This document shows, piece by piece, positions 29,277 through 48,248 of a stretch of 64,000 bases of DNA; position 1 is the stretch's first letter; each line of letters starts with the position of its first letter. The stretch covers positions 192,001 through 256,000 of the forward strand of contig CBDBFU010000013.1 of the NCBI GenBank assembly GCA_965205025.1. The letters run 5' to 3'. A model generated the notes under the pieces. That model searched no databases. It saw only the letters and a list, made by a program, of their open reading frames with translations, and had not been told where the DNA came from. The DNA comes from Candidatus Poribacteria bacterium (GTDB taxonomy: Bacteria > Poribacteria > WGA-4E > WGA-3G). The translations under genes and the position numbers were made by a program.

Positions 29277-30710
29277 TCAATTCGTGGCTGCCAAAACCCT
29301 ATTGAATTTAGGTGGGTTATTATGACTTATATGTTCATGACTCCCTAAAAACTTTTCAACACCGCGCACAACTGCAGCAGCTATCTTCTGTTGATATGTT
29401 TCAGAAGTGAGCTTTTGTCCTTCAGAAGGGTTGGTAATAAACCCTGTTTCAATAAGAATTGCAGGAACAGTTGTTCCTATTAGAACAACAAAGCGTGCAT
29501 GTTTAACCCCGCGATCTGTAGCACCTGTGGCGTTGACCAATTCCTGTTGAACATGTTGTGCCAATCTACGGCTGTCTTTACTCTTACTCTCGACGATTAT
29601 ACCTTTTAAGAGCGATTCCAATTCTTGTATACTATATCCTGAGTATGTATTTTCTCGTGCTGCGATAAGTTCCGAATTCTTATCCGTACTTGTAACATCT
29701 AAATAATATGTCTCAATACCGTTAGCTTTCAAATTTTCACTTGCATTTGCATGAATACTCAAAAATAGGTCTGCTTTATGTTTTGTGGCAAATGCTGTAC
29801 GGTCTTTTAATTCAATAAATCGGTCGGTATCTCTCGTTAACAGAACGTTGTATCCTTTTGCCGATAACAATGCTCCAATTTTCTTTGAAATACTAAGCGC
29901 AATAGGTTTTTCTATTAGATTACCAGAACTGACGCCTCCAGGATCTTTACCACCGTGGCCAGCATCAATAACAATCGTTTTAGCCGTCAATCCGAATTCA
30001 CGAGTCAATGATTCAGGGGTTAATGTTTCTGGTTTGGAGGTAGTTGGGGCAGGTTTAGTTTGTGGCTTTGTCTTTTCTTGTGTTTTAATTGATTGTGCTG
30101 TAGGTTTGGGTTCTATCTTCTGTCCTTTTAGTTCTTTCAACTCTCTTGATGCAATAGTTACTACCTCTTTTGCGGATGCTGATTCAACGATGTCGACATA
30201 CAATGTTTCAGCACGGGTTTTATATCCATGTTGAACATACGATCTACCCAATTCCAACTTCGCTTCTGAGGCAACATCAGTATTTGCATATCGGTTAATT
30301 ACTATCTGGTAATGATGCACAGCACGGGCGGAATCCCCTACTAATGTATAGCAGCGACCTATCCAGTAATGCGCTTGAGGTAAATGCGTGGAGTCAGGAT
30401 AGGTATAAATTAATCTCCGAAAGGCTGAAATTGCCTTTTGTGGTGCTTCAGTATCTCCAGATTTAATACACCAAACCCAACTGGACGCAATAGCAAATTG
30501 CACATCATCAGCAGATTCATTCTTGGCATCAGTCTGAAGTAATTTCTCGAAATCAGAGATCAATGAATACCATTCATCAAGTGTTGTTTGTTTTTCTCCA
30601 CTTGTATAGGTGTAATGCTTATCAAGCAATTGATTATGTTGTGGCATGCTAACACAACCAAGGAAGCACAACATTAAAAGGGGTACCATACACAGAGAAT
30701 ACGATTTCAT
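29277..30710 (-). CDS. N-acetylmuramoyl-L-alanine amidase (Amidase_3) with N-terminal TPR domain, probable lipoprotein
   Basis: FLGC lipobox; YPDS..PQAHYWIG TPR; IVIDAGHGGKDPG, SIHANA, ILIETGF. Confidence 0.88.
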   Translation of the reverse strand: MKSYSLCMVPLLMLCFLGCVSMPQHNQLLDKHYTYTSGEKQTTLDEWYSLISDFEKLLQTDAKNESADDVQFAIASSWVWCIKSGDTEAPQKAISAFRRLIYTYPDSTHLPQAHYWIGRCYTLVGDSARAVHHYQIVINRYANTDVASEAKLELGRSYVQHGYKTRAETLYVDIVESASAKEVVTIASRELKELKGQKIEPKPTAQSIKTQEKTKPQTKPAPTTSKPETLTPESLTREFGLTAKTIVIDAGHGGKDPGGVSSGNLIEKPIALSISKKIGALLSAKGYNVLLTRDTDRFIELKDRTAFATKHKADLFLSIHANASENLKANGIETYYLDVTSTDKNSELIAARENTYSGYSIQELESLLKGIIVESKSKDSRRLAQHVQQELVNATGATDRGVKHARFVVLIGTTVPAILIETGFITNPSEGQKLTSETYQQKIAAAVVRGVEKFLGSHEHISHNNPPKFNRVLAATN

Positions 30711-30890
30711 TCTTAAAACTCCTCTGCTTTCTTTTAAATTGACATAGCACAATTCAACCTTATGCTATGCAGATATAGAGAATCTTAATGTTTATTTTTA
30801 TTCTTGATTACCAAAGTATAAAACGATGAAGATGACATCTTCGTTACTAAATGCGAATTAATACCATTTCTATATGATAATATTGTTCAC

Positions 30891-33025: not shown

Positions 33026-35968
33026 ATGGCAAGAGATAAGAGAGAGAAAGAGGTTAAGGATTACCGACACGACTCATCAACACGAAAGAATAACCCACCC
33101 GCTGGTATCGCTGGACAGGCGAGAACACCCGAAACTCCCAAACAGGAATACGCATATAATCCACATTTACCACCCATATTGCGCTCCGATCCGAACGGTG
33201 ATGTAGACAAACTTCACGAACTCCTCGAAAGAGCACAGAAACAACCCCTCACATCAGAAGAGGCGAAAAGAATTGCGGATGCACTCAAACATCATGAACC
33301 GTGGTTAGAATGGTCAGGGAAACAAGAAGCAAAATCCTTTACTGTTGACCCAGTTGCATTGCATGTGCATGAACGCGTGAGTGCAAAAGCAATTTTAAAG
33401 GTAGCAGAACGTGAAAATGTCCAACGCCAACTCTTTGCTGACCCACAGCAGACATATAACGAGGCGGTCGAGTTTTACAAGCACGATGTGGATTGGGCAA
33501 ATAGGCTAATTCTTGGGGATAGTCTGATGGTGATGAGTTCTCTTGCGAAACGTGAAGATCTTGCTGGTAAAGTACAGATGATTTACATTGATCCACCCTA
33601 CGGTATTAATTTCTCTTCTAATTTTCAATCAACAGTATTCCAACGTGATGTAAAGAATAGAGACCAAGATTTGACGCGTGAAGCAGAACAGGTAAAGGCA
33701 TACCGTGACACATGGACACTCGGTATACATTCCTACCTTGCATATCTCCGTGATAGGTTAATTGTTGCCAAAGATTTGTTGACAGATAGCGGGAGTATCT
33801 TTGTGCAAATTAGTGATGAGAATGTTCATCGGGTAAGGGTTATAATGGATGAAGTGTTTGGTAGTAAAAATTTCTATGCTATGATAAATTTCAGAAGCAT
33901 GAGTCCTTTGGGACAAAAAGGAATCGCTCGAATTTATGATTATATCATGTGGTATGCCAAGGATATAGATCAGATAAAATTTAGACCGCTGTTCTTTTAT
34001 AGAGACTTAATGGATGAATCAGAGTTCTCTTTTCTTGATAGAGGTGACGGAACCTATGAGAAATTGCCAAGATCCGATATCCAAAATCTATCCTCTGAAC
34101 AATTGCATAAGGTATTTAAGAGATCAGTTCTAACATCTTCTGGATATACACCATCTTGCACCTATGATTTCAAATATGAGGGGAGTACATTTAGTCCGTT
34201 AAGTCGTAAAAGTTGGCGTACAACTTTAGATGGAAATAGACGTTTATCATTAGCTAAAAGGCTTTTAATCTTAGGAAAGAATCTCTACTATCGGCAATAT
34301 CATAGTGACTTTCCATTAATTCAGATGGAAAATAGTTGGACAGATACTGCCGCTGGATTTAGCGATTCTAAACGATATGTTGTTGAAACTAATCCAAAAA
34401 TAATTCAACGCTGCTTACATATGACTACTGATCCTGGGGACCTTGTCCTTGATCCTACCTGTGGTAGTGGTACTACTGCCTATGTGGCTGAGCAGTGGGG
34501 TCGACGGTGGATTACAATTGACACCAGTCGGGTTTCTCTTGCATTAGCACGACAACGTCTGTTAACAAGTAGTTTCGAGTATTATGAACTGAAAGATGAA
34601 ATGAGTGGTGTTGCAAGAGGATTTATTAATAAAGTCGCACCACACATCACGCTCAGAAGCATTGCCCAAAACACCGCCCTTGACCCTATCTTTGAAAAGC
34701 ATGAACCCATTCTTAAAGAAAAATTGGATACATTGAATAGTGCTTTGGTTGAAATTACAGACGACATCCGATCGAAACTCCTTGCGAAACTTGTAGAGAA
34801 AGAAAAACGCGATGGGAAAAGATCCATCACAGAGGCAGATAGACGACGATGGCAACTACCAGAAACGGAATGGCAGGAGTGGGAAGTGCCGTTTGACACC
34901 GATCCGGATTGGACGGATGCATTAAAGAAAGCGTTGACCGATTATAGAGAAGCATGGCGTGCAAAGATGGATGAGGTAAATGAATGTATTGCTGCTGCCT
35001 CTGATGGTGAGGAGTTGGTTGACCAACCAGAGATAGACAGAAGACGAATTCGTGTGAGTGGTCCCTTTACTGTGGAAGCGGTGCAGCCTCCTGAAGAATA
35101 TCTTGATATGGAGTCTCCTATCGGTGGAGAACCCGAAGAATTGGACGAAACATTTGATGAAACTGAAAATGATACACACGAAGATGTGAATGCAGAGGCG
35201 TATCTTGACAAAATGATTCGTCTTTTACGTGAAGATGGTGTGAAGTTTCCTGATGATAATAAACAGAAATTCGCTACGCTGAATCCTTTTGATGGTGGTA
35301 TTTTACACGCTGAAGGGAGTTGGGAAAATGGTGATTCGGATCGACGGGTTGCGGTCGCGTTCGGTCCACAACACGGACCTGTGACCGCAGTACAGGTTGA
35401 ACAGTGTGTACGTGCAGCATATCGAAATGCATTTGATGATCTTATATTTGCAGGTTTTAGTTTTGATGGTGCAGCACAAGCTGCCATTCAAGACGATCTG
35501 AATCCGAGTGTACGTATCCACATGGCTAATATCAGTCCTGATGTGGTGATGGATGACCTCCTGAAGAATACTTCCTCCACGCAATTGTTTACGGTGTTCG
35601 GATTGCCGCGTACAACCCTTGAGAAACAAGACAATGGTGAGTATGTTATTACGATGGAAGGGGTGGACATTTATAATCCTGTGGATAACACCTTGAGTTC
35701 TGCTGGTGCGGATAAGGTGGCAGCATGGTTTCTTGATTCTGATTATGATGGTCGAACTTTCTGTATTACGCAAGCGTTCTTTCCTGACAGAAAGGCATGG
35801 GACAAAATTGCGCGTGATCTTAAGGGTGTGATTGACGCGGAGAGTTTTGAGATGTTCAGTGGAACAGAATCGTTACCATTTCCTATGGGGCAACATAGAT
35901 GTGCTGCCGTTAAAGTCATTGATCCGCGCGGGAATGAGGTGATGCGGGTGCATAATTTGGATGCGTAG
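33026..35968 (+). CDS. mod: type III R-M methyltransferase (Mod; N6-adenine, beta-type motif order)
   Basis: NRLILGDSL, IYIDPPY, LDPTCGSGTT, C-terminal AVKVIDPRGNE. Confidence 0.9.
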   Translation: MARDKREKEVKDYRHDSSTRKNNPPAGIAGQARTPETPKQEYAYNPHLPPILRSDPNGDVDKLHELLERAQKQPLTSEEAKRIADALKHHEPWLEWSGKQEAKSFTVDPVALHVHERVSAKAILKVAERENVQRQLFADPQQTYNEAVEFYKHDVDWANRLILGDSLMVMSSLAKREDLAGKVQMIYIDPPYGINFSSNFQSTVFQRDVKNRDQDLTREAEQVKAYRDTWTLGIHSYLAYLRDRLIVAKDLLTDSGSIFVQISDENVHRVRVIMDEVFGSKNFYAMINFRSMSPLGQKGIARIYDYIMWYAKDIDQIKFRPLFFYRDLMDESEFSFLDRGDGTYEKLPRSDIQNLSSEQLHKVFKRSVLTSSGYTPSCTYDFKYEGSTFSPLSRKSWRTTLDGNRRLSLAKRLLILGKNLYYRQYHSDFPLIQMENSWTDTAAGFSDSKRYVVETNPKIIQRCLHMTTDPGDLVLDPTCGSGTTAYVAEQWGRRWITIDTSRVSLALARQRLLTSSFEYYELKDEMSGVARGFINKVAPHITLRSIAQNTALDPIFEKHEPILKEKLDTLNSALVEITDDIRSKLLAKLVEKEKRDGKRSITEADRRRWQLPETEWQEWEVPFDTDPDWTDALKKALTDYREAWRAKMDEVNECIAAASDGEELVDQPEIDRRRIRVSGPFTVEAVQPPEEYLDMESPIGGEPEELDETFDETENDTHEDVNAEAYLDKMIRLLREDGVKFPDDNKQKFATLNPFDGGILHAEGSWENGDSDRRVAVAFGPQHGPVTAVQVEQCVRAAYRNAFDDLIFAGFSFDGAAQAAIQDDLNPSVRIHMANISPDVVMDDLLKNTSSTQLFTVFGLPRTTLEKQDNGEYVITMEGVDIYNPVDNTLSSAGADKVAAWFLDSDYDGRTFCITQAFFPDRKAWDKIARDLKGVIDAESFEMFSGTESLPFPMGQHRCAAVKVIDPRGNEVMRVHNLDA

Positions 35969-35974
35969 AGGTTG

Positions 35975-36335
35975 TCTGAATCGCAGATTTCACGGATTTC
36001 ACGGAGAAGAGGATTATACCATTTTCAATTGATACACTTACATTATGACTTACGTAATTCAATGATCATCATATACATATAATGAGTCCCGGGGAATGCC
36101 TAAATGGCATTCATACCCGGGGAATGCTAAATAGCATTCATACCGTTGATTCCTTGATTTGGTAGGGACGGAATGTCTATAGAAAACGTGTTTAGCCACT
36201 ATCTTGAGTCCCGTAGGGACGGAATGTCTATAGAAAACGTACTGACCCTAAACAATAAGCCCCATCGGGGCGAAAGGTTTGTAGAAAAGCATATAAAAAA
36301 TGAGGTTCAGCCCCAGCGGGGCGAAAGGTGTGTCG
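35975..36335. repeat. repeat block: 9-mer cacggattt tandem, self-nested ~34-nt element in a gagtcccgtagggacg REP, gcccc REPs
   Basis: Direct reading; nested element at 36090-36159. Confidence 0.8.
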
Positions 36336-36455
36336 AAACATAATGTCTGAAGAGAAAACTCACGAATTATATGATTTTATACAGCAATGCAGTGATGAAA
36401 CGCATTTGTGTATTGTGAGCTTTATTTTTAGATAAATACAAACGGAGGTAAAAAC

Positions 36456-36878
36456 ATGAGCATTATAATGCCAACTGGTAAAAGTGGAATATTCGGAGAC
36501 CTAAAACAACATGGCAGAGCACGCGCAGTCTTACCAATCCTTATACTCCGCGCACAAGAACATAATACCATCACTTTCGGAGAATTAGGAAATGCTATCG
36601 GTTTCCGACGCTATGATCTCTTTGGTGGTATTCTTGACTGTATCAACACAGAACTTCATGGAATAAACACAGATCTTCCAACGCTATCAACAATTGTTGT
36701 TAGAAAAAACAATGACGGAAATAAGGAACCGAGTAGTTGGATGGCAAATCAGATGCGGGAACAGTTGAATTTGGAGCCTACGTGGGAGAATTACCACCGT
36801 ATCTGCATTCAACCTGTTTTTGATTATCCAGACTGGGATAAGGTTATGAACGAAATTATCCAGTCACAAAATTGGTGA
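36456..36878 (+). CDS. hypothetical protein (winged-helix-like, restriction-associated type)
   Basis: GGAGG RBS; ITFGELGNAIG...LDCIN...LPTLSTIVVRK pattern. Confidence 0.6.
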   Translation: MSIIMPTGKSGIFGDLKQHGRARAVLPILILRAQEHNTITFGELGNAIGFRRYDLFGGILDCINTELHGINTDLPTLSTIVVRKNNDGNKEPSSWMANQMREQLNLEPTWENYHRICIQPVFDYPDWDKVMNEIIQSQNW

Positions 36879-36946
36879 TAAAGTGTGATGTGTCTAAAAT
36901 ATTTTACTTGGCAATATGTCTAACACATGCTTTTCAATATTCATTT

Positions 36947-37138
36947 TTATTCTTTGCGTATATCTTTGTAAACTAAATTTTGCAGTATGACATTAAGTAA
37001 TAAAATAATTAACGTTTCATTTGTGTTGTGTGAACCTTCGTAAAAAATATTATCTATAACCTGAAAGGTAAAAATACCGAAAAATATAAGCAGGGTTATG
37101 CTAAAAAAAATAAACATAACTTTGTAAAATTTATTCAT
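36947..37138 (-). CDS. small two-TM membrane protein (63 aa), paralog A
   Basis: TAAGGA RBS; two hydrophobic stretches; shares IDNIFYEGS and KDI.KE with paralog B. Confidence 0.65.
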   Translation of the reverse strand: MNKFYKVMFIFFSITLLIFFGIFTFQVIDNIFYEGSHNTNETLIILLLNVILQNLVYKDIRKE

Positions 37139-37153
37139 TTTTTAATCCTTACA

Positions 37154-37190
37154 GTTTCCATTCCCTTCAAACGGGAAAGTAGTTCCGATC
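37154..37190 (-). repeat. solitary CRISPR-repeat-like sequence (37 nt)
   Basis: Minus strand gatcggaactactttcccgtttgaagggaatggaaac: TTCCC/GGGAA hairpin and GAAAC 3' end. Confidence 0.55.
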
Positions 37191-37230
37191 TTGACAATAT
37201 GTCTAATACATGCTTTTTCAATATTCATTT

Positions 37231-37446
37231 TTATTCTTTGCCTATATCTTTGGCATCTAATTTTTGTAGTATAGTAAATAATAACATCATAATAGCTATT
37301 AATAATACAATAATAACTGTTTCACTTATATTGGATGAACCTTCGTAAAAAATATTATCTATTAACTGCAAGATAAAAACCCCGACACATATAAAAAAGG
37401 CTATGGGACATAAAATAAACATAACTCTGTATTGTTTTTTAGACAT
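37231..37446 (-). CDS. small two-TM membrane protein (71 aa), paralog B
   Basis: TAAGGA RBS; tandem duplicate of 36947-37138 including flanks. Confidence 0.65.
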   Translation of the reverse strand: MSKKQYRVMFILCPIAFFICVGVFILQLIDNIFYEGSSNISETVIIVLLIAIMMLLFTILQKLDAKDIGKE

Positions 37447-37466
37447 TTTAATTTTTAATCCTTACG

Positions 37467-37503
37467 GTTTCACTTCCCTCCAAATGGGAAAGAATTTTTA
37501 CCA
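37467..37503 (-). repeat. degenerate second CRISPR-repeat-like sequence
   Basis: Plus strand gtttcacttccctccaaatgggaaag versus gtttccattcccttcaaacgggaaag at 37154. Confidence 0.45.
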
Positions 37504-37609
37504 TCCCATTCTTCATACTTCCACTTCTCCAGCCTTCTATTCAAATTCGGTTCAAAAAGTACACTACATTAACAATTATATCAAGAAAAAATGAAATTCA
37601 CTATCTTAT

Positions 37610-38460
37610 TAATATAGTTTGGACAATTATCAGATGTTTTAGGTTGACCTAATACTACTATAGTTTGGACAATTTTAGACATAGCACTCCGCTGGAGCAA
37701 GACGCACAACTTATCTGTGTGTTAGATGTGATCAATAGAGAACTAACTACACCGGCCTTACGATGTCTCCTCACGCCAGCGGCGTGATATGTCTATAGAA
37801 ATAAAAGGCAGAAAACCCCGCACTCCAGCGGAGTGCTATGTAGAGATGTCCGCTTTGGACATAAATATGCTTTTCAGTCATTTATACCGACCCTAAAACT
37901 ATCAGGAAAACAGAGAAACCCTTGAAACACGACATGAGACCGACAGAAACTGTCCAAAATATAGTATGCGATATTAACTTGTAGAAAATCTATCATATAC
38001 AAATAAGAACAGCCCCAGCGGGGCGGAAGGTGTGTAGAAAACGACGGATAGGAAAAACTAAGCCCCGGAGGGGCGAAAGGTGTATTGGAAAAACATAATG
38101 CCTGAAAAGAAAACCCACGAATTATATGACTTCATTCAACAGTGCACCGATGAGATGTCTACAGAATATGAACGGATTTATAAAGATCAACTGAAAATTA
38201 AGGATCGCTGGGAATCAATGAGAAGAAAATTGAGATGATTATTACGTGGCTGGCTTCCTTGCAACATCAACGTCAATTTAAGAATACACCTTTCGCCCCG
38301 CTGGGGCTTTATACATTGGGTTTCAACGTTTTCTATAAACCTTTCGCCCCGCTGGGGCTTTTAACAGGGTTATTTAGTTTTAAGAATTATCAGTAAATTA
38401 GTATTACCGATAATTTATTTCGTAGATTGGGTTGAACCGTAGGTGAAACCTAACATTTCC
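37610..38460. repeat. REP/MITE cluster
   Basis: tatagtttggacaatt/aactgtccaaaatatagta ends; cacgccagcggcgtg block; gccccagcggggcg copies in both orientations. Confidence 0.75.
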
Positions 38461-38662
38461 TGTATGTCTAGGGTTACATGTTGCTTTTTATAGAAATGTG
38501 AAAAAATATAGAAGTAAAACCGAAAACTAAATAACCCTGGAAGTCGTGGATAAACATGGATTAAGTATAGTAAATAATGCTATAATTTCTGGCATGTGTT
38601 CGTAGAATTCCAATCCACGAAACTGAAATTCAGCGAGCAGCGCGTCCGGACGTTAAAATACA

Positions 38663-38691
38663 TTGACTTTCCACCCAAATTATCACATAAT
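38663..38691 (+). promoter_or_regulatory. sigma70-like promoter of TA pair 3
   Basis: TTGACT-17 nt-CATAAT. Confidence 0.6.
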
Positions 38692-38740
38692 ACTATATTA
38701 CCAAATATTGTACAGATAGGCTTTATTGGAGGATCAAGAC

Positions 38741-39076
38741 ATGGACCATATCCAAACATTCAAAATTCATGACGTGGAAGATGGCGAGATCTATACCGCA
38801 AAAATCCAAAAAAATGGCAAGAAGTGGATGGGGTGGATACAGGAATACCCCAAAGTCAAGTGTGAGGCAGATACACAAGACGCATTACTGGAAATCCTCG
38901 AAAACACGCTTTATCAAAGCCTTGAAGCAGATTGGCAAGCATGGGACAAACAATTAGAGGCAGACGTAAGAGCAGGAAAACTTGACACTATCCTTGAACG
39001 AGTCAGTGCTGACTTTCATGCGGGTAAATGTGAAGACTTAAGGGTATTTCTTTCAAAGAAAGCCGCTGAGGAGTAG
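38741..39076 (+). CDS. HicB-like fold antitoxin candidate (copy 3)
   Basis: GGAGGA RBS; WMGWIQEYPKVKCEADTQD plus AWDKQLEADVRAGKLD. Confidence 0.7.
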   Translation: MDHIQTFKIHDVEDGEIYTAKIQKNGKKWMGWIQEYPKVKCEADTQDALLEILENTLYQSLEADWQAWDKQLEADVRAGKLDTILERVSADFHAGKCEDLRVFLSKKAAEE

Positions 39077-39149
39077 AGTGCTGCGTCTAAAATTTTGAAA
39101 CTTGCCATATTTCGTTTTAACCTACGCAAATCGAAACGTGCAAAGAAAT

Positions 39150-39404
39150 ATGAACAACCATGTCATAAACGACGATTTCTGGGCTGCGTACAACAACCTA
39201 CCACAAAACGTTCAAAGAAGCACACTCCGGAAAATTGAATTGTTACTTGAAAATCCTATGCACCCTTCTCTCTACTTTAAAAAGGTTGGTAGGCTTTGGT
39301 CAGCACGAATCAATAAGCAATATCGTATTCTGGCGCGCGAAGAAGAAGGCACTTTAGTCTGGTATTGGGTCGGAAAACACGACGAGTATATGAGACAGAT
39401 ATGA
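39150..39404 (+). CDS. RelE/ParE-like toxin (copy 3)
   Basis: HPSLYFKKVGRLWSARI..QYRIL......WYWVGKHDEY. Confidence 0.78.
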   Translation: MNNHVINDDFWAAYNNLPQNVQRSTLRKIELLLENPMHPSLYFKKVGRLWSARINKQYRILAREEEGTLVWYWVGKHDEYMRQI

Positions 39405-40139
39405 TGCATTAGCGTAGATTCACCCATTTCCATCCCACCTCAAAATATCCCTTCCTGATTTACCCAAAGTATATTTATTAAAAAAAATAAAATAAATTGA
39501 AGAAAATATAAATATCTAACATCTAACATACATATTTCACAATAATATAAAAATAAAGCATATATATTTGTCAAAATAAAAATAAAATTGTATAATACTA
39601 TATCGTTCAATAATTGTAAACTAACGCATTTTGGAGTTGATACCCAAATCATGATTTTCCGTAGTCTAAAAAATCAGATAAATAGGATTATCAAATTGAA
39701 TTACACGGCAAATTTTTTTAGTTTTTCAAATTTTAAAATTTTACACCGATTCATCAAATCCTCTGTTATCCCAACCCCCAACAGGGTTTACAGCCTATTA
39801 AAAAGTCATTTCCTAAAAACCGACTCAAAAAACTTGAAAAACTTGAAAATGGATGGTTAAGTTATTTCATATAAAAACGACTCCCAAACAATGGATAAAA
39901 GGAAAAGTAAAAGACACAAAATCCATCAATTGTGCAAATTCTTGTAACCTTAAAACAGTGGCTGTAAGCCCAGTGTAGTACTGACGGGATAAGGGTTTTC
40001 CCAATGTTACACGATGTAACGAAAAGTGCAACTTTTGAAAACAATATGAAATATTAAATATTACAACTGTGAAAGCGAAAGAGAGTAAATTTACAGAATA
40101 ATTACCCTTGGATTAATATAAGTTTGTACAATTTTAAGC

Positions 40140-40765
40140 GATACACATTTCGCCCCTCTGGGGCTTTGGGTTAGTAGTTTAGCACATTTTCTACAAACAT
40201 TTCGCCCCTCTGGGGCTTTCTGAATCACGGATTACACGGATTACGCGGATTTCACGGATGGGTTTTTTGGTTGTTTAGTGGTTCTTGACTTGTGATTGGG
40301 TTTATCTGGGACGACGGGTTATAAGTGTATGTATCAAAATAGTGTTATCTTTTCGAAATTGGCAGCCCCAGAGGGGGAAAGTGTGTAGAAAACGGAATAG
40401 TCCAAAACAATAAGCCCTGGAGGGGCGAAAGGTGTGTAAAAACATAATCAAGAATACCTATAATGAGTTGTACTAAATAACTTTTAGTATTAGTAACCAA
40501 TAGTTTCACATAAATAATGGCTGGTATGAATACCCTTCATTAGTTGGCATTATCTTTAGTCCCGTAGGGACGGAATGTCTATAGAAAACGTGTTTAGCCA
40601 CTATCTTGAGTCCCGTAGGGACGGAATGTTTATATATTGAAACGTAATACCACTTCTAAAATGTTGCTTACTCATTATACATTGAAGAAACACCCTAATT
40701 TCACTTTATCAGGGGATTACTAAGAATACCCGTAATGTAAACTATTTAAATAGAAATGGTATAAT
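40140..40765. repeat. REP cluster with inverted gcccc REP pairs, 9-mer tandem and gtcccgtagggacgg doublet
   Basis: ttcgcccctctggggc x2 facing gccccagagggg/gccctggaggggcg; tcacggattacacggattacgcggatttcacgg. Confidence 0.75.
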
Positions 40766-40908
40766 AATGCAAGCTCGATGTAGGGTCCACTCGGATTTGA
40801 GAGAAAATATCTAAATCGGTAATATGAAGTGCGGAGTGTAGGTTATAGACAAAGTAGAACAAAATTAAAATACATGAATTCTATTTCTCAAAATGGAGAT
40901 ACTAAATT

Positions 40909-41832
40909 ATGCAAGAATTTGGCACATTAAAAACGACAGACCTGCGGAAATCTTGGAAACGCGAGGATAAAGACTTTACACCATGGTTATCAAAAAACTT
41001 GAAATTGTTAAGCAAAGCGTTGGATATGGATCTTGAGTTTGTTGATGAACACATCAATGTCGGACGGTATGAATGTGATTTACTCTGTAGGAACAAGCGT
41101 GATAACTCATTTGTAGTCATTGAAAATCAGTTAGAAGAAATGGATCATGATCATCTTGGTAAAGCATTGGTTTATACGACTGGATTACATGCCGAAACAG
41201 TCATCTGGATAGCAGAAGACTTTACGAATGAACATCGAAAAACAATTGATAGGTTGAATGAAATTACCCATGATTATATCCAGTTTTTTGGTGTACAGCT
41301 TGAAGTAATTCAGATTGATGATTCCCGCATTGCCCCAAAGTTTAATGTTATCGTGAAACCGGATAACTGGATACCTCATATAATACTAAGTGATGACTAC
41401 TGGGAGAGATTTAAACACTACTTGGAACAACACAAGAGTAACCTTGAAGTACTGAAATGGACAGCAGGAAAAAATTATCTCGGTTTCTACTTGGGATATG
41501 ATGTGAATGATGGTCAGAGACCTAAATACTGGATTGCAGCAGGTAAGAGCGGTGGATTTCTCGCTGCAACTTTCTGCATTGATAAACAAAAACTTCCGGA
41601 TATCATGCAATGGTTTAAGAATAATCGTCAGGTTGTGGACCAAATATTCACTGAGAATTTTCCTGAGAAACCTAAGAGACCCAATATTCCCTTTAATGTG
41701 GTTGGAGTTACACGGAAGTTAAATAATCAGATAAAAGAGGAGCAAGAGTTTGAATGGTTTCGTGAAAAACTTGAGAACTTAGAGAAGTTATTTAAGCATG
41801 GCGGGGAGATTGATTTTTTATCAGATGAGTAA
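40909..41832 (+). CDS. PD-(D/E)xK/NucS-like nuclease-fold protein (DUF4268-associated type)
   Basis: E.KDFTPWL..NL, VGRYECDLL, VIENQLEEMDHDHLGK.L.Y. Confidence 0.7.
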   Translation: MQEFGTLKTTDLRKSWKREDKDFTPWLSKNLKLLSKALDMDLEFVDEHINVGRYECDLLCRNKRDNSFVVIENQLEEMDHDHLGKALVYTTGLHAETVIWIAEDFTNEHRKTIDRLNEITHDYIQFFGVQLEVIQIDDSRIAPKFNVIVKPDNWIPHIILSDDYWERFKHYLEQHKSNLEVLKWTAGKNYLGFYLGYDVNDGQRPKYWIAAGKSGGFLAATFCIDKQKLPDIMQWFKNNRQVVDQIFTENFPEKPKRPNIPFNVVGVTRKLNNQIKEEQEFEWFREKLENLEKLFKHGGEIDFLSDE

Positions 41833-42150: not shown

Positions 42151-43311
42151 ATGAAGTTAAATATCGTCTTTTTCATTTTGATAGTATTATTAGGAATCAC
42201 GGTTTCAGTTGCAATTGCCCAGCAAAATGGTGATGTTCCAAAAACGGACAAGGAAGTTGAGAAACTCAAAATCCAACTTCAGACTGTGGAAAATGAGAAG
42301 ATGGAGGCAGAAACGAAACTTGCTGAGGCAAATACAAAACTCATAAATGCTGAGTTTGGCAAGTTTGAGAGGGAATTGCGAGATTCTAATAATAAATGGT
42401 TATGGGGATGGACAGGATTCTTTGTTGGGATTGTAGCGATTATTGGAATAGCTTTATGGTTTTCAGTAAAATCATTGATTGTAGATAGAGTTGAAAAGAG
42501 CCTAAACGGATTTAAGGATGCCGTTAAAAAAGTGGAAGAATTACGAGATCAATTGAGATATTTACTAAGAGAAAACGCTGTAGCTGTATTAGGAGACTTT
42601 TCTGCGGGTATTCTTGTGGAATTAGACAAGCACACTAAAGAAGTCAAAGCACTATCAAAAGAAGTACTTATGGATGTATTCAACGATAAAACACGTGATT
42701 TAAGTTACAGATGGCTTGCTGCAGAGATATTTGTTGCAAGGGAATACACTGATCTTGTTGCACCAGTACTAAACTTCCTAAAGGATATTATAAAATCAAA
42801 TGATTTTGATAGAATTTATATCTTTCCTTATGATCCCCAGTATCACATACGTAGTTTGGTATACCCAATTGGAAAAATACATACACAGGACACTTACAAA
42901 AACTTAAGAAATTTCATAATTTTTCTTCAAAATGAGAATCCAAAAAATAAAGATTCATGGATTGCATGGACTGCACATTCATTCGCTTCGGTTAGTGTGG
43001 CATTGAATAAAACAGATTCAACGGTTATCCTTATAGAGTCTATACCAGATTGGGATTTTTCTACACAAGTTCCTATACAAGAAAAGGAAGCCTTAACAGA
43101 TCTGATCTATAACTTCAATTCATTGCATGTTCCTAATGGAATAAAAGCAATATTAACAAATAGTTTAACAGATAACATGCCCGATGTAGAAGAAAAATGT
43201 TTAGAGTTATTGCAAGAACACGACCCAAAATTTGTAAGAGAATGGAAAGAGGAGAAAAAAGAAACTAACGAGGAAAATGAGGAGAATAATGAATCAGAAC
43301 CAACAACTTGA
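42151..43311 (+). CDS. hypothetical membrane protein (signal peptide, coiled coil, TM, helical domain)
   Basis: Hydrophobic N-terminus, coiled coil, WLWGWTGFFVGIVAIIGIALW TM; 3' end overlaps the res start. Confidence 0.7.
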   Translation: MKLNIVFFILIVLLGITVSVAIAQQNGDVPKTDKEVEKLKIQLQTVENEKMEAETKLAEANTKLINAEFGKFERELRDSNNKWLWGWTGFFVGIVAIIGIALWFSVKSLIVDRVEKSLNGFKDAVKKVEELRDQLRYLLRENAVAVLGDFSAGILVELDKHTKEVKALSKEVLMDVFNDKTRDLSYRWLAAEIFVAREYTDLVAPVLNFLKDIIKSNDFDRIYIFPYDPQYHIRSLVYPIGKIHTQDTYKNLRNFIIFLQNENPKNKDSWIAWTAHSFASVSVALNKTDSTVILIESIPDWDFSTQVPIQEKEALTDLIYNFNSLHVPNGIKAILTNSLTDNMPDVEEKCLELLQEHDPKFVREWKEEKKETNEENEENNESEPTT

Positions 43312-46264
43312 TATCCCAATTCAACCAGTAGAACAACCTATCTTATGCAGTCCGTATGAAGAACCAGTAGAACACTGGAGATATGACACTGAAAATGGGG
43401 AAGCCGTTAAACACCCCGGAAGACGTGAAGCGGGGTATTGGTATAAAACAGAACGTACCGGTAGTGCTCAACTCGGTCTTTTTCAGGAAGAGGAACGTGA
43501 CGATCTACCGATTGTAAACGAACTACGTGCAGATGTAAAACGATGGCGCGAGACGAATTATCGTAACGCCACAAATGTCACCCGTGAATTACTTAGACAT
43601 TGGTCACGCGATGATCTTTTACGCCGTCTCTTTTTCTGTCAACGCGAAGCAGTTGAAACTATCATATACCTCGTTGAGATACGTCAAGGTGGGAAACGCC
43701 TCGGTTTTAATCCGACTTTTACCGATGAGAAATTGGCGAAGTTAGTGGATACACCGAATGATCCCGGTCTTTCGGAGCTGATACGTTACGGGTGTAAAAT
43801 GGCAACCGGTAGTGGTAAGACTGTTGTTATGGCAATGTTAATCGCTTGGGCATTTTGCAACCGTGGTAGATTTCCTTCTGATGACAGATTTCCACACGCA
43901 GCACTTATCGTTTGTCCGAACTTGACAATCAAAAAACGGTTACAGGTATTACGTCCAGATGAAACTGATAATTACTACGACGAATTTGAACTTATCCCAA
44001 CGAAACTACGTCCCTTGCTAAACAGTGGTAAGGTGTTGATAAACAATTGGCATCAATTTTCACTTGAGTCTGAACATAGTGAAGGCGGACAATCTTATAC
44101 GGTTGTGAACAAAGGCGAGGAAACGCCGGATGCTTTTGCAAAACGTGTCTTGGGTGAACTGTACGACCGTGCACCAATTATGGTGTTGAATGACGAGGGA
44201 CATCACGCCTATCGTCCTGCACCGACGGATGAAAAACTTTCCGCTGAGGAGAAGAAGGAACGTCAAGAAGCCACGGTGTGGGTAAGTGGATTGGATAGGT
44301 TCAATCAGTCGTGTGGTGTTAAGTTCTGTGTGGATCTCTCTGCCACACCGTTTTACATTCAAGGGAGTGGATATGCAGAAGGTACACCGTTCCCTTGGCT
44401 TGTGAGTGATTTCGGTTTAGTAGATGCAATTGAAAGTGGTATCACAAAAATTCCGCGTTTACCTACGAGTGATACGACGGGTAGACCGGAACCGAAGTAT
44501 TTTCGGTTGTGGAAAGCGATTAACGATGAAATTCTACCTGCGGAACGATTACGAAATAAGAAACCTAAACCGGAAGCAGTATACCGAGTAGCTGAGGACG
44601 CACTTAACACGATTGCGAGTCAATGGAAAGAACGGTTTGATTATATTCAGGAGGCATCGGACGAACAGGATAAAACGCCGCCAGTACTTATCATCGTTTG
44701 TGATAACACGGATATTGCAGAGCATTTCTACCGTATGATTTCAGGTGAACGAGAGGTAGAAGTGCTTGATGAAAAACGCAAGGTCAAGACACAGATAGAA
44801 TTTGAACAGGGGAAGGTCTTTCCCAATTTGCTTGGGAATACACACAGTGTTACGCATACAATACGAATTGATAGTAAAGTATTGGATGAGGTGGATAGTG
44901 ATGATCCAACCAAGAGTCGTAGTCAAGCAGAAGAGGATCTCCGTGAAGTCGTTGCCACAATAGGGAAAAAAGGAAAACCGGGAGCGAATATACGATGTGT
45001 GGTATCTGTGGCAATGCTTAACGAGGGATGGGATGCTAATAACGTCACACATATTCTGGGTATACGTGCTTTTACCAGTCAATTGCTTTGTGAACAGGTC
45101 GTCGGAAGGGCATTACGTCGAATGAATTACACACCAGATCCTGAAACGCAAAAACTCACAGAGGAATACGCTGATGTGTATGGTATTCCGTTTTCTGTAA
45201 TTCCTTTCAAGGGTAGGGCAACTAAGAAACCTGAAGAGGGTGACAGACCTGTTAACCACGTGCGTGCATTACCCGCACGGTCAGTTTATGAGATACGGTT
45301 TCCAATTGTAGAGGGATATGCTTTTGCTTTACGGAAGTACGAGATAAAGGCTGATATTGAATCTATGGATGTGTTGCGTCTTGAACCTGAATACACCCCA
45401 ACCGCTGTTTTTCTTGAAGCGACTACGGGATATCAGATTGGAGAAATTTCGGGGGCACGTCCAGGTGGGTTTGTTAGACAGGATCGAGAACAATTCTATC
45501 GGCAAACACACTTACAAACGATTAAGTTTGAAATTGCACAACGGATTGTCTATAGATTGGTTGGTGATAAGAATAGTGCGCCAGATCCAAATAGCAACCC
45601 GGAACTCCGTCTGATCTCTCGGCACAGGTTATTTCCACAGGTATTCAGGTATGTTGATGCCTATATTGAGAATAAGGTTGATTTTCGCGGTTGTAATCCG
45701 TGTGAACTCGGACTTGAGAAGTATGTTATGTGGATCGTTGATCGTCTGATGACAGCAATTCTGCCCGATAATTCAGAAGGTGAAGTGCCGTTGCTTCCGA
45801 TTTTAGATCGGTATAAACCTGTCGGTACATCGGCAGATGTTGATTTCTTTACAACACGTCCATGTCATGGGGCATACCGTAGTCATGTAAATCAAGTTGT
45901 GTTGGATACAGCAACATGGGAACAATCTGCATGTTTCTACTTGGAAGCATCGGAGGTCGTGAAATACTATGTACGGAATGATCATCTCGGTTTGAGTATA
46001 CCGTATGAAAACCTTGGAATTACCCATAATTATGAACCTGATTTTATTGTTAGACTTATAGATAATACCAACGTACTTTTGGAAACGAAAGGGTTTAAAA
46101 GACAATTAGAATCATTGAAAAGTGAGGCTGCGAGGAGATGGGTTGCTGCAGTGAATAATTGGAATCGTGAACGGCTTGGAGAACTGGAGCAACAGGGGAA
46201 GTGGGTGTTTCATGTATGTGATGATCCACAATTGTTAGAAGAGGAATTGGAAGGGTTGGTGTAG
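43277..46264 (+). CDS. res: type III restriction enzyme Res subunit (SF2 helicase + PD-(D/E)xK nuclease)
   Basis: MATGSGKT, NDEGHH, LSATP, MLNEGWD, QVVGRALRR, YEPDF...LETKG. Confidence 0.9.
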   Translation: MRRIMNQNQQLDIPIQPVEQPILCSPYEEPVEHWRYDTENGEAVKHPGRREAGYWYKTERTGSAQLGLFQEEERDDLPIVNELRADVKRWRETNYRNATNVTRELLRHWSRDDLLRRLFFCQREAVETIIYLVEIRQGGKRLGFNPTFTDEKLAKLVDTPNDPGLSELIRYGCKMATGSGKTVVMAMLIAWAFCNRGRFPSDDRFPHAALIVCPNLTIKKRLQVLRPDETDNYYDEFELIPTKLRPLLNSGKVLINNWHQFSLESEHSEGGQSYTVVNKGEETPDAFAKRVLGELYDRAPIMVLNDEGHHAYRPAPTDEKLSAEEKKERQEATVWVSGLDRFNQSCGVKFCVDLSATPFYIQGSGYAEGTPFPWLVSDFGLVDAIESGITKIPRLPTSDTTGRPEPKYFRLWKAINDEILPAERLRNKKPKPEAVYRVAEDALNTIASQWKERFDYIQEASDEQDKTPPVLIIVCDNTDIAEHFYRMISGEREVEVLDEKRKVKTQIEFEQGKVFPNLLGNTHSVTHTIRIDSKVLDEVDSDDPTKSRSQAEEDLREVVATIGKKGKPGANIRCVVSVAMLNEGWDANNVTHILGIRAFTSQLLCEQVVGRALRRMNYTPDPETQKLTEEYADVYGIPFSVIPFKGRATKKPEEGDRPVNHVRALPARSVYEIRFPIVEGYAFALRKYEIKADIESMDVLRLEPEYTPTAVFLEATTGYQIGEISGARPGGFVRQDREQFYRQTHLQTIKFEIAQRIVYRLVGDKNSAPDPNSNPELRLISRHRLFPQVFRYVDAYIENKVDFRGCNPCELGLEKYVMWIVDRLMTAILPDNSEGEVPLLPILDRYKPVGTSADVDFFTTRPCHGAYRSHVNQVVLDTATWEQSACFYLEASEVVKYYVRNDHLGLSIPYENLGITHNYEPDFIVRLIDNTNVLLETKGFKRQLESLKSEAARRWVAAVNNWNRERLGELEQQGKWVFHVCDDPQLLEEELEGLV

Positions 46265-47219: not shown

Positions 47220-48248
47220 TTACTTACTGTATTGTTGTTTTAGCGTACTCCACGTTACTGTTTTTTTGCCGACCGGTGAAACCGACAACACATCGTCACT
47301 TATCCAATCCAGCGAATCATCTCTTCCCGGATGGTCTGTTAGGCGTGTAATCTCTCCCGTTCGTATGCCATACTTATAGATATTGCTGGGTGGGTACTGA
47401 TCGCGAAATGGTGGTGGTTCGTTCAGAGGTATCCCAACATACGCACTAAAAACAACCGATTTTCCATCATCCATCCAGTCAATTGTTAATGAGAACCAAT
47501 CTTTGGGTATCCGTAGTTGTTTGATGTTTTCTCCGTTCCGGTCACAAATCAGATACCGATGTGCCTTGTAGATAATTGCTACACCTAATCCGGGGATCCG
47601 CTCCCAGACATATTGGCTATGGAGATAGACGATCTGTTTTCCATCAGGTGACCAGCGTGGGGCTCGGATACTTCCCAGGATCGGAGGAGGCAGGAGTTTT
47701 CGTGGATTATGTCCATCTGCGTCCATTATCCAAAGCGTTCCACCCACTCCATTAATAACCCCAGGTTCTGTGTACACAATCTGTTTTCCATCTGGGGACC
47801 AATCACAATATGTTGCCTGGACATCCGCAATCTTTTTTAGCACTCCGGTTTCAATATCCAGCACGTTGACTGTCTTTATCTCTTTGTCGTTTTTTTCCAC
47901 TCTCATGTTAAAAACGAGAGATTTGCTATCCGGGGCAAATGACATCCTACCGATAGGGATTCTCGGGGTGTTAAGTTTCCGGATGTTTGTGCCATCTGGA
48001 TGCATCAAGTATTCACCCCACTTACCCTCAAATGCAATCTGTTTTCCATCTGGGGACCAGGAAGAGGGGTGTGGGAACGTCCGGTCCCCCTCTTCTATAA
48101 GAAGCGTCTGATTGCTGCCGTCATCATCCATCACGTAAACACCTTTCACACCGTCGCGTCTGGAACTAAAAACTATTTTAGCATCTGCCACTACTCCGAA
48201 AAGTAGAAGCATTAGCAGACAAAGCAAACTGACTTTTTGCCCATTCAT
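47220..48248 (-). CDS. secreted TolB-like (PD40) beta-propeller protein with conserved C-terminal tail
   Basis: Repeated WSPDGKQI; ends LSVSPVGKKTVTWSTLKQ. Confidence 0.85.
   Translation of the reverse strand: MNGQKVSLLCLLMLLLFGVVADAKIVFSSRRDGVKGVYVMDDDGSNQTLLIEEGDRTFPHPSSWSPDGKQIAFEGKWGEYLMHPDGTNIRKLNTPRIPIGRMSFAPDSKSLVFNMRVEKNDKEIKTVNVLDIETGVLKKIADVQATYCDWSPDGKQIVYTEPGVINGVGGTLWIMDADGHNPRKLLPPPILGSIRAPRWSPDGKQIVYLHSQYVWERIPGLGVAIIYKAHRYLICDRNGENIKQLRIPKDWFSLTIDWMDDGKSVVFSAYVGIPLNEPPPFRDQYPPSNIYKYGIRTGEITRLTDHPGRDDSLDWISDDVLSVSPVGKKTVTWSTLKQQYSK

Follow-up and report, generated by a model that had tools for sequence, protein, structure and literature searches.

Lone CRISPR repeats heading tandem genes for predicted small membrane proteins in a poribacterial defence island: a stranded array end?

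Why should a sequence resembling a clustered regularly interspaced short palindromic repeat (CRISPR) stand directly in front of a protein-coding gene? The question is raised by a 64,000-nucleotide (nt) stretch of a Candidatus Poribacteria genome (the window, whose positions are used throughout), in which a minus-strand stretch of two tandem units at 36907-37503, here called the module, joins two repeat-like sequences to two small open reading frames (ORFs). With a probability of about 0.55, we read the module as a stranded, tandemly duplicated array-end fragment that now serves, within a defence island, as the 5′ untranslated region (UTR) of genes for small membrane proteins. The genome holding the window is designated G000, and the sole other module carrier among species representatives is G032.

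Sequence reading and the ORF list resolved two units of ~310 nt, each in the order GAAAC-ending hairpin repeat, 2 nt, TAAGGA, 7 or 12 nt, ATG, small ORF and conserved tail. Self-comparison gave a start-to-start distance of 305-313 nt and 78-82% identity across repeat and ORF. The first repeat in the reading direction, R2 (37467-37503), is a degenerate copy with its core, TTTCCCATTTGGAGGGAAGTGAAAC, at 37467-37491 and an unrecognizable 5′ third. It is followed by the TAAGGA ribosome-binding site (RBS) of orf71 (37459-37464), by orf71 itself (37231-37446), an A-type ORF predicted to encode a two-helix membrane protein of 71 residues, and by an inter-unit tail (X″, 37191-37230). The second repeat, R1 (37154-37190), is a full-length 37-nt copy that ends in ...CTTTCCCGTTTGAAGGGAATGGAAAC and has 5/37 mismatches to the array consensus described below; it precedes the TAAGGA of orf63 (37146-37151) and orf63 (36947-37138, ATG at 37138), a B-type paralogue of 63 residues with a shorter second hydrophobic segment. 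A second tail copy at 36907-36946 has no repeat after it, and 28 nt of the two tails (36907-36934 and 37190-37217) are 93% identical. Between R2 and an extended −10-like element, TGATATAAT (37575-37583, minus strand), that may be the promoter of a two-unit transcript lies a purine-rich GGAAG-type segment, X (37504-37567, minus strand), which is 95% identical in G032; X″ is a shortened and diverged copy of X with a weak promoter-like match, TTGAAA-16-TATTGT. The first-pass annotation of this DNA, which had described a tandem of repeat, RBS, two-transmembrane ORF of 63 or 71 residues and tail, was confirmed from sequence, with the TAAGGA 2 nt after the repeat.

R1 would fold into a hairpin with a UUCCC/GGGAA stem and the handle AUGGAAAC, as in the arrays of G012, a relative in the genus, and R2 into an 8-bp hairpin that includes two G-U pairs, with the handle AGUGAAAC. 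The distance from handle end to TAAGGA is 2 nt in all three copies, that is, both G000 units and the G032 unit. An exact 26-mer had 0.00 expected matches over 100 shuffles; the degenerate core matched twice in the G000 genome (reversed control, 0), and a 37-mer scan at ≤11 mismatches gave two sites (reversed control, 0). R2 has more than 11 mismatches to the array consensus over 37 nt and agrees with it at 22/25 core positions. Apart from one dubious site on contig C9 (11/37 mismatches), which looks like chance inside other sequence, no further copy was found in G000 at ≤11/37 mismatches, and a scan of 34000-41000 against Rfam at E ≤ 1 returned no family, hence no CRISPR-DR model. The module is not itself an array, which would have three or more repeats spaced regularly, every ~70-78 nt, by unique spacers: its two copies lie 313 nt apart, and no conserved array leader precedes them. 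We also observed that the R2 complement followed by AGAATTTTTA (37474-37490, plus strand) resembles an intrinsic terminator for plus-strand transcripts; the unit 1 complement lacks a T run.

The repeat belongs to a family that is widespread among relatives. Its 25-nt core is present in 69/112 family genomes and 22/39 other genus genomes, with none for the reversed control anywhere, and true arrays occur in 15/40 genus genomes, with 71-78-nt periods, runs of up to 230 copies and a 37-mer consensus, GTTCGGAAAG..CTTCCCGTTTGAAGGGAATTGAAAC. R1 agrees with this consensus at 32/37 positions, all five differences falling in the 5′ third; its stem-loop and handle match the ...AATGGAAAC variant of G012 at 25/25 positions, and its identity to array repeats is 86-89% across 37-44 nt. 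Judged by sequence, R1 and R2 are copies of a true CRISPR repeat native to this lineage. The first-pass annotation had proposed a comparison with the lineage's true repeats and had named the lack of a matching family as the result that would undo its idea; since such a family exists, that objection falls away. In a closed genome, G014, a 54-repeat array is bordered on one side by a reverse transcriptase and Cas1 and on the other by Cas6, a protein with a CRISPR-associated Rossmann fold (CARF) domain, three Csx7-type repeat-associated mysterious proteins (RAMPs), Csx10 and Cas10. This locus is a type III-D-like system.

None of this machinery was found in the two carriers, both of which are draft assemblies (G000, 95.5% complete in 33 contigs; G032, 99% complete in about 120 contigs). 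When all 12 proteins of the G014 locus, including Cas6, Cas10, Csx7, Csx10, the CARF protein, Cas1 and the reverse transcriptase, were compared with G000 by tblastn, none matched at E < 1e-3 (best E values, 0.39 to 9.9). Family searches of G000 detected no Cas1, no PF10040 Cas6 and no RAMP, and a k-mer scan detected no array, the candidates opened being leucine-rich-repeat-type gene repeats and tandem dispersed repeats. The lone Cas6 trace, at 9686-9853 of contig C31 (L003), covers 43 residues of the C-terminus (PF01881, E = 8.6e-13), is broken by three TGA stops and has no array near it; it stems from another CRISPR-Cas system, since lost. A Cas2-domain match at 62838-63056 of contig C2 (L066, 1003-1851) lies within an atypical 282-residue ORF with a cysteine-rich C-terminus, and this ORF is adjoined by a homologue of the window ORF at 38726-39076, the partner of a ParE-like gene. 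In G032, neither the cognate Cas6 nor Cas10 was found and there was a single core match. The cas locus is probably absent from G000, a draft at 95.5% completeness. The first-pass annotation had noted no cas genes or array in the window, and this holds across the whole assembly with the exceptions of the broken Cas6 remnant and the atypical Cas2-domain ORF.

Metagenome data bear on the same point. Two runs, X1 and X2 (DNA contig sets of one study), hold the window; the module contig is identical in both, at depths of 50.2 and 2.8. The R1 bins in X1 sum to 46,464 and 33,478 because many true-array contigs with an R1-like repeat and different spacers map there. Among those listed, the true-array contigs at 37104-37237 in X1 and X2 have depths of 269-406, compared with 50.2 for the module contig, a mismatch which suggests that the abundant arrays belong to a more abundant relative. 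In that relative, a homologue of the 140-residue ORF beside the module is followed by unrelated sequence from 36898 on, and its contig is thus without the module.

Lone copies of the repeat are not peculiar to the carriers. We tabulated core matches against Cas6 presence in 40 genus genomes, which gives a base rate only, as related genomes are not independent. Fifteen genomes had three or more matches, and 13 of these had the cognate Cas6 (one with stops), G016 and G046 being without it. Eight genomes had one or two matches (G000, G010, G013, G024, G025, G032, G041 and G043), of which six had no Cas6, G024 had a gene with a stop and G010 an intact one. The remaining 17 had none, among them G037 with two Cas6 genes and G027 with a fragment. 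Lone, partly mutated repeat copies are a common residue in genomes without the system. The two Cas6 proteins of G037 are full-length and of the cognate type (69% identical to that of G014), yet no core match with up to two mismatches was found in the genome, whose arrays presumably have a repeat that has diverged.

A second type of repeat-headed gene was seen, near-identical in three genomes: G043 (L026, 976-1525), G008 (L007) and G025 (L017). Here the 3′ end of a true leader and a single repeat are followed by 9 nt, GGAGGG, a 167-residue P-loop ORF and then a TnpB/OrfB_IS605-like gene. The cognate Cas6 is absent from G025 and G043.

From which part of an array could the module have come? We rejected a leader origin for its upstream sequence, which showed no homology by blastn to the ~200 nt conserved in the leaders of 28 array loci. 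Its likeness is, rather, to the oldest spacers, those at the trailer ends of true arrays. X precedes R2 in both G000 and G032, and a 76%-identical paralogue of it, X′, precedes the truncated second repeat of G032 and carries GGTGGAAGAATGGGAGG; the same motif occurs in spacer-like sequence by the degenerate terminal repeats of true arrays in G016, G022, G036 and G046. GGAAG-rich sequence of the GGTGGAAGAATGGAAGG type occupies the last spacer positions by degenerate terminal repeats in these four genomes, and a motif of this type, with one mismatch, lies ~30 nt before the truncated second repeat of G032. One metagenome array spacer is also rich in CTTCC on the plus strand and hence, read in the orientation of the repeat, in GGAAG. 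The array end of G046 holds three tandem units, each a repeat plus 250-350 nt, so long terminal units do duplicate in this repeat family. That locus (L028, minus strand, 892-1800) consists of a leader and seven normal units before the three long ones, which begin with GGAAG-rich sequence and a half-repeat and continue as short tandem oligomer repeats; there is no cognate Cas6.

The element TGATATAAT, ~70 nt upstream of R2, is identical in G032 together with 37 nt around it, and we infer a promoter there from its sequence. It is missing from the list of the promoter consensus scan for want of a −35 match; that scan returned eight promoter-like sites against 6.4 expected, and the TTGAAA-16-TATTGT match is within chance expectation.

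Taken in sequence, the proposed history is as follows. The old (trailer) end of a type III-D-like array, consisting of GGAAG-rich old-spacer sequence and a terminal repeat, would have been left behind; the ORF would be what lay behind the terminal repeat, and the whole unit would later have been duplicated in tandem. The cognate Cas6, effector and adaptation genes and the rest of the array would be gone from G000. A single transcript from TGATATAAT would then read X, R2, orf71, tail, R1 and orf63, with the repeat hairpins uncut and acting as mere 5′-UTR or intercistronic stem-loops, and both proteins would be translated from their TAAGGA sites and inserted in the membrane as helical hairpins. 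The alternative offered by the first-pass annotation, that the units are gene-sized spacers, comes nearer the mark in evolutionary terms, as the units look array-derived.

Are the ORFs live genes at all? On the best-surviving rival account, which we hold to be unlikely, the locus is a pure relic, its ORFs being decaying or spurious frames in AT-rich array-end DNA. Several findings are compatible with decay. The ratio of non-synonymous to synonymous substitution rates (dN/dS) is 2.05 between orthologues (4 synonymous and 30 non-synonymous changes), which we reckon not significantly off neutral, and about 0.9 between paralogues, and the changes are spread across codon positions (16, 8 and 10; 15, 14 and 16). 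One family member, P0005, is a frameshifted copy. The distribution is very narrow: a family-wide ORF search matched 3/112 genomes (G000, G032 and, weakly, G108), and the family profile matched 2/159 order genomes and 2/173 class genomes. Annotation gave only sub-threshold membrane-family noise in Pfam and nothing in PADLOC or PHROGs, the best ORF Atlas score was 0.85, under the 0.9 lead level, and back-translated protein-family searches gave 378 and 85 pattern matches, none of them confirmed.

Other findings argue for real genes. Frame, TAAGGA and start codon are kept in all three copies, and the start has moved by two codons without loss (ATG AAA GTA in G032 versus ATT AAA ATG in G000 unit 2). 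The length of orf63 differs from that of orf71 by 7 codons (21 nt), which leaves the frame intact, and P0006 has the same short C-terminal form, ILQNLVYKDIRKE, which makes orf63 a subtype and not a broken copy. By our own estimate, a 71-codon open frame would arise by chance in DNA this AT-rich with a probability of ~0.002 per frame. A profile search of 1.84 billion proteins gave six matches at E ≤ 0.001, and the family, with at least six intact members, has a common loop motif, N-x-F-[YF]-[ED]-[GA]-[ST]-x-N-x-x-E-T, between two hydrophobic helices. The loop motif and the two hydrophobic segments persist even in the more distant P0007 and P0008, whose identity to orf71 is 42% and 27%. P0005-P0008 come from four metagenome contigs (9.5, 2.1, 16.7 and 2.4 kb).

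Hydropathy likewise gave two hydrophobic segments, and AlphaFold2 predicted a two-helix hairpin (helices 3-35 and 40-70) with a mean predicted local distance difference test score of 73.7 from a 6-row alignment. Small hydrophobic toxins and holin-like proteins have 60-75 residues, two hydrophobic helices, a basic N-terminus and a charged C-terminal tail. The products of orf63 and orf71 are like them in size, in the two predicted hydrophobic helices, in the basic N-terminus and charged C-terminus and in their defence-island setting; they differ in that no sequence-family match and no antisense RNA or lysis genes were identified. We conclude that orf63 and orf71 belong to a rare, fast-evolving, uncharacterized family of predicted membrane proteins, and from the defence-island setting and the fast evolution we would guess at a role as a small membrane effector or toxin-like protein.

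The reading of the module as a stranded array end is consistent with signs of decay at the locus: the 5′ third of R2 is lost, the second repeat of G032 is cut before GAAAC and its B-type unit is gone, and the frameshift of P0005 and the dN/dS values point the same way. Six observations weigh against it. The G014 array locus is off the syntenic position; the G014 homologues of the amidase and PD40-repeat genes that flank the island lie ~1-2 Mb from the array, so that a relic in place is not shown. Both carriers are drafts, and the strain may, though the depths make it unlikely, have an array or cas locus that was left unbinned. The ORF, judging by the profile matches and the loop motif, is not junk. 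The non-coding part, including the repeat, is slower-changing than the gene: G000 and G032 differ at 9 positions in the 161 nt preceding the ORF (the TGATATAAT region, X, R2 and the RBS; 94% identity) and at 34 positions in the 216-nt ORF (84% identity). Either the non-coding part is constrained or helix 1 is diversifying, and the sequence data would fit both. R1 holds all 25 core positions despite ~20% divergence between units 1 and 2, and the arrangement of repeat, TAAGGA and ATG is kept in both paralogues and in two species.

Among published cases, degraded stand-alone repeats are the most likely kind for the module. The stand-alone mini-arrays of type III systems were judged likely degraded and non-functional (Shmakov et al., 10.1101/2023.03.03.530964). 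The module resembles them in consisting of partly degenerate repeat-like sequence that lies outside any regular array, belongs to a type III-associated family and has no detectable target. Those mini-arrays lie close to cas operons or arrays in system-bearing genomes, whereas here the whole genome is without the system, and the copies here are 313 nt apart, each directly heading a translated-looking small ORF. Array fragmentation is frequent in Anabaena (Reimann et al., 10.1101/2020.04.14.041012), where pieces also lie away from cas genes and a type III-D system with a reverse transcriptase-Cas1 module and a dedicated Cas6 is likewise involved. The Anabaena orphan arrays, in contrast, are multi-spacer and are processed by a Cas6 elsewhere in the genome; the module has two repeats, no normal spacer and no Cas6, and its host is not a cyanobacterium, a photosystem reaction-centre gene (Photo_RC) not having been found in G000.

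Could the repeat instead control the genes behind it? The module would then be a Cas-coupled membrane toxin, the protein-toxin analogue of CreTA for a type III system, an account to which we give somewhat less credence than to the pure relic. Cas6 would cut 8 nt before the repeat end, leaving an mRNA that starts with the tag of a CRISPR RNA and is either silenced by capture or trimming or released for translation, and the toxin output would signal that CRISPR-Cas had been lost or inhibited; G000 and G032 would have lost Cas and be disarming the toxin, or the cas locus would be unassembled. The geometry that led the first-pass annotation to propose such coupling stands, in that the 8-nt handle would end 2 nt before TAAGGA in all three copies. 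The Cas6-recognition part of R1 is intact (25/25), the non-coding part is better conserved than the ORF, and live arrays with the repeat are present in the same samples and in 15/40 genus genomes. A dN/dS of at least 1, the frameshifted P0005 and the deleted G032 unit fit disarming after Cas loss.

What the proposal lacks is an enzyme: no Cas6, Cas10, RAMP or Cas1 was found in G000 and no Cas6 or Cas10 in G032, and Cas6 coupling cannot operate in G000 as assembled. An intact addiction toxin should not persist in two Cas-less species, and no genome with the cognate system has the ORF among the 112 of the family. Folding gave no stable anti-RBS pairing, and energies for sequestration of the RBS by the repeat were no better than those of shuffles (z = −1.10, −1.01, +0.01 and +0.11). 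The comparison with CreTA itself is mixed. CreA is a repeat-spacer-repeat unit of type I or V-A cas loci, by which the effector is directed to repress the promoter of an RNA toxin (PMC9458426, PMC8501985, PMC10097628). With CreTA/CreR the module has in common ectopic degenerate repeats beside a toxic element, here a putative one, and the idea of a toxin tied to CRISPR status. CreTA lies within or beside the cas operon, and creA has, between two degenerate repeats, a ~30-40-nt spacer complementary to the toxin promoter. In contrast, no cas genes were found in the window or genome, an ORF and no spacer-like unit separates the two repeats over 313 nt, the repeat family is type III and the ORF encodes a protein. 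A more specific version makes the unit a type III counterpart of CRISPR-guarding toxin modules, with a Cas6 site at the mRNA start that silences or licenses a membrane toxin; the non-synonymous-rich change of helix 1, the frameshifted copy and the deleted unit would be traces of disarming. We regard this version as a little more doubtful again.

Lone repeats on mobile elements act as RNA anti-CRISPRs (Racr; PMC10651486). A Racr-like decoy, in which strongly transcribed lone repeats would sequester Cas6 or Cas7 from a cognate type III-D system once the island or its carrier element enters a CRISPR-bearing relative, the proteins being co-transcribed cargo, seems to us very unlikely. Solitary units downstream of promoters are known in viruses and plasmids, some with small anti-CRISPR genes, and the module likewise has a lone lineage repeat downstream of a conserved promoter-like element, TGATATAAT, and may be co-transcribed with a small gene. 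The known-repeat likeness and the 313-nt distance make each copy solitary by the rule of no other repeat within 100 bp (PMC10651486), and the cognate system occurs commonly in the genus and also in the samples that yielded the module. Racr carriers, in contrast, are viruses, prophages or plasmids, ~90% of them in CRISPR-Cas hosts (PMC10651486), whereas the module lies in a chromosomal defence island of two species in which the system was not found. The island contains genes for restriction-modification, toxin-antitoxin pairs and PDC-S11, and no integrase, phage or plasmid hallmark was seen in it; a blastn search of 50,697 phage and 72,556 plasmid records gave no match, and a 27-nt junction pattern occurred 0 times in metagenome contigs, 0 times in viral contigs and once in genome contigs (L065, presumably the G032-like record). 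Chance resemblance to a CRISPR repeat, for which nothing speaks beyond the shortness of the motif, is refuted by the zero expectation in shuffles, by reversed controls of 0 in G000 and all 112 genomes and by the 32/37 identity across the full repeat.

Should the module be no more than a relic, it illustrates cleanly how array ends outlive the loss of CRISPR-Cas and how a CRISPR repeat can become the 5′ UTR of a gene, which calls for caution with tools that report lone repeats as regulators or anti-CRISPR RNAs. If the repeat still matters, this would be, to our knowledge, the first case of a type III repeat directly heading a protein-coding toxin-like gene, and would extend CRISPR-coupled toxins past the RNA toxins of type I systems. 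The literature searched held no repeat-headed protein gene of this kind, which does not prove that none is in print. Either way, a small uncharacterized family of predicted membrane proteins is defined in a defence island.

An amidase gene (29277-30752) and a PD40-repeat gene (47220-48248) bound the variable island that contains the module. A type III restriction-modification methyltransferase (33026-35968; PADLOC E = 1.9e-164) is followed by the 140-residue ORF, whose closest named homologues are from Candidatus Poribacteria, and then by the module. Beyond the module are a ParE-like toxin with its upstream partner (38726-39404), a PDC-S11 candidate defence gene (40909-41832), a 386-residue ORF and a Res-like helicase (43277-46264). 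The methyltransferase and the helicase are thereby parted by ~7.3 kb that hold the module, the ParE-like pair, the PDC-S11 gene and other ORFs. In G032, the same flanks are ~2 kb apart, with only dispersed repeats, a 342-nt methylase fragment and 1.3 module units between them. Two direct repeats of ~160 nt (36242-36398 and 37995-38153; 63-84% identical) flank the 140-residue ORF and the module in the window, both ending in the small-ORF start M(S/P)E(E/K)KTHELYDFIQQC, and the block between them may have been inserted or duplicated as one.

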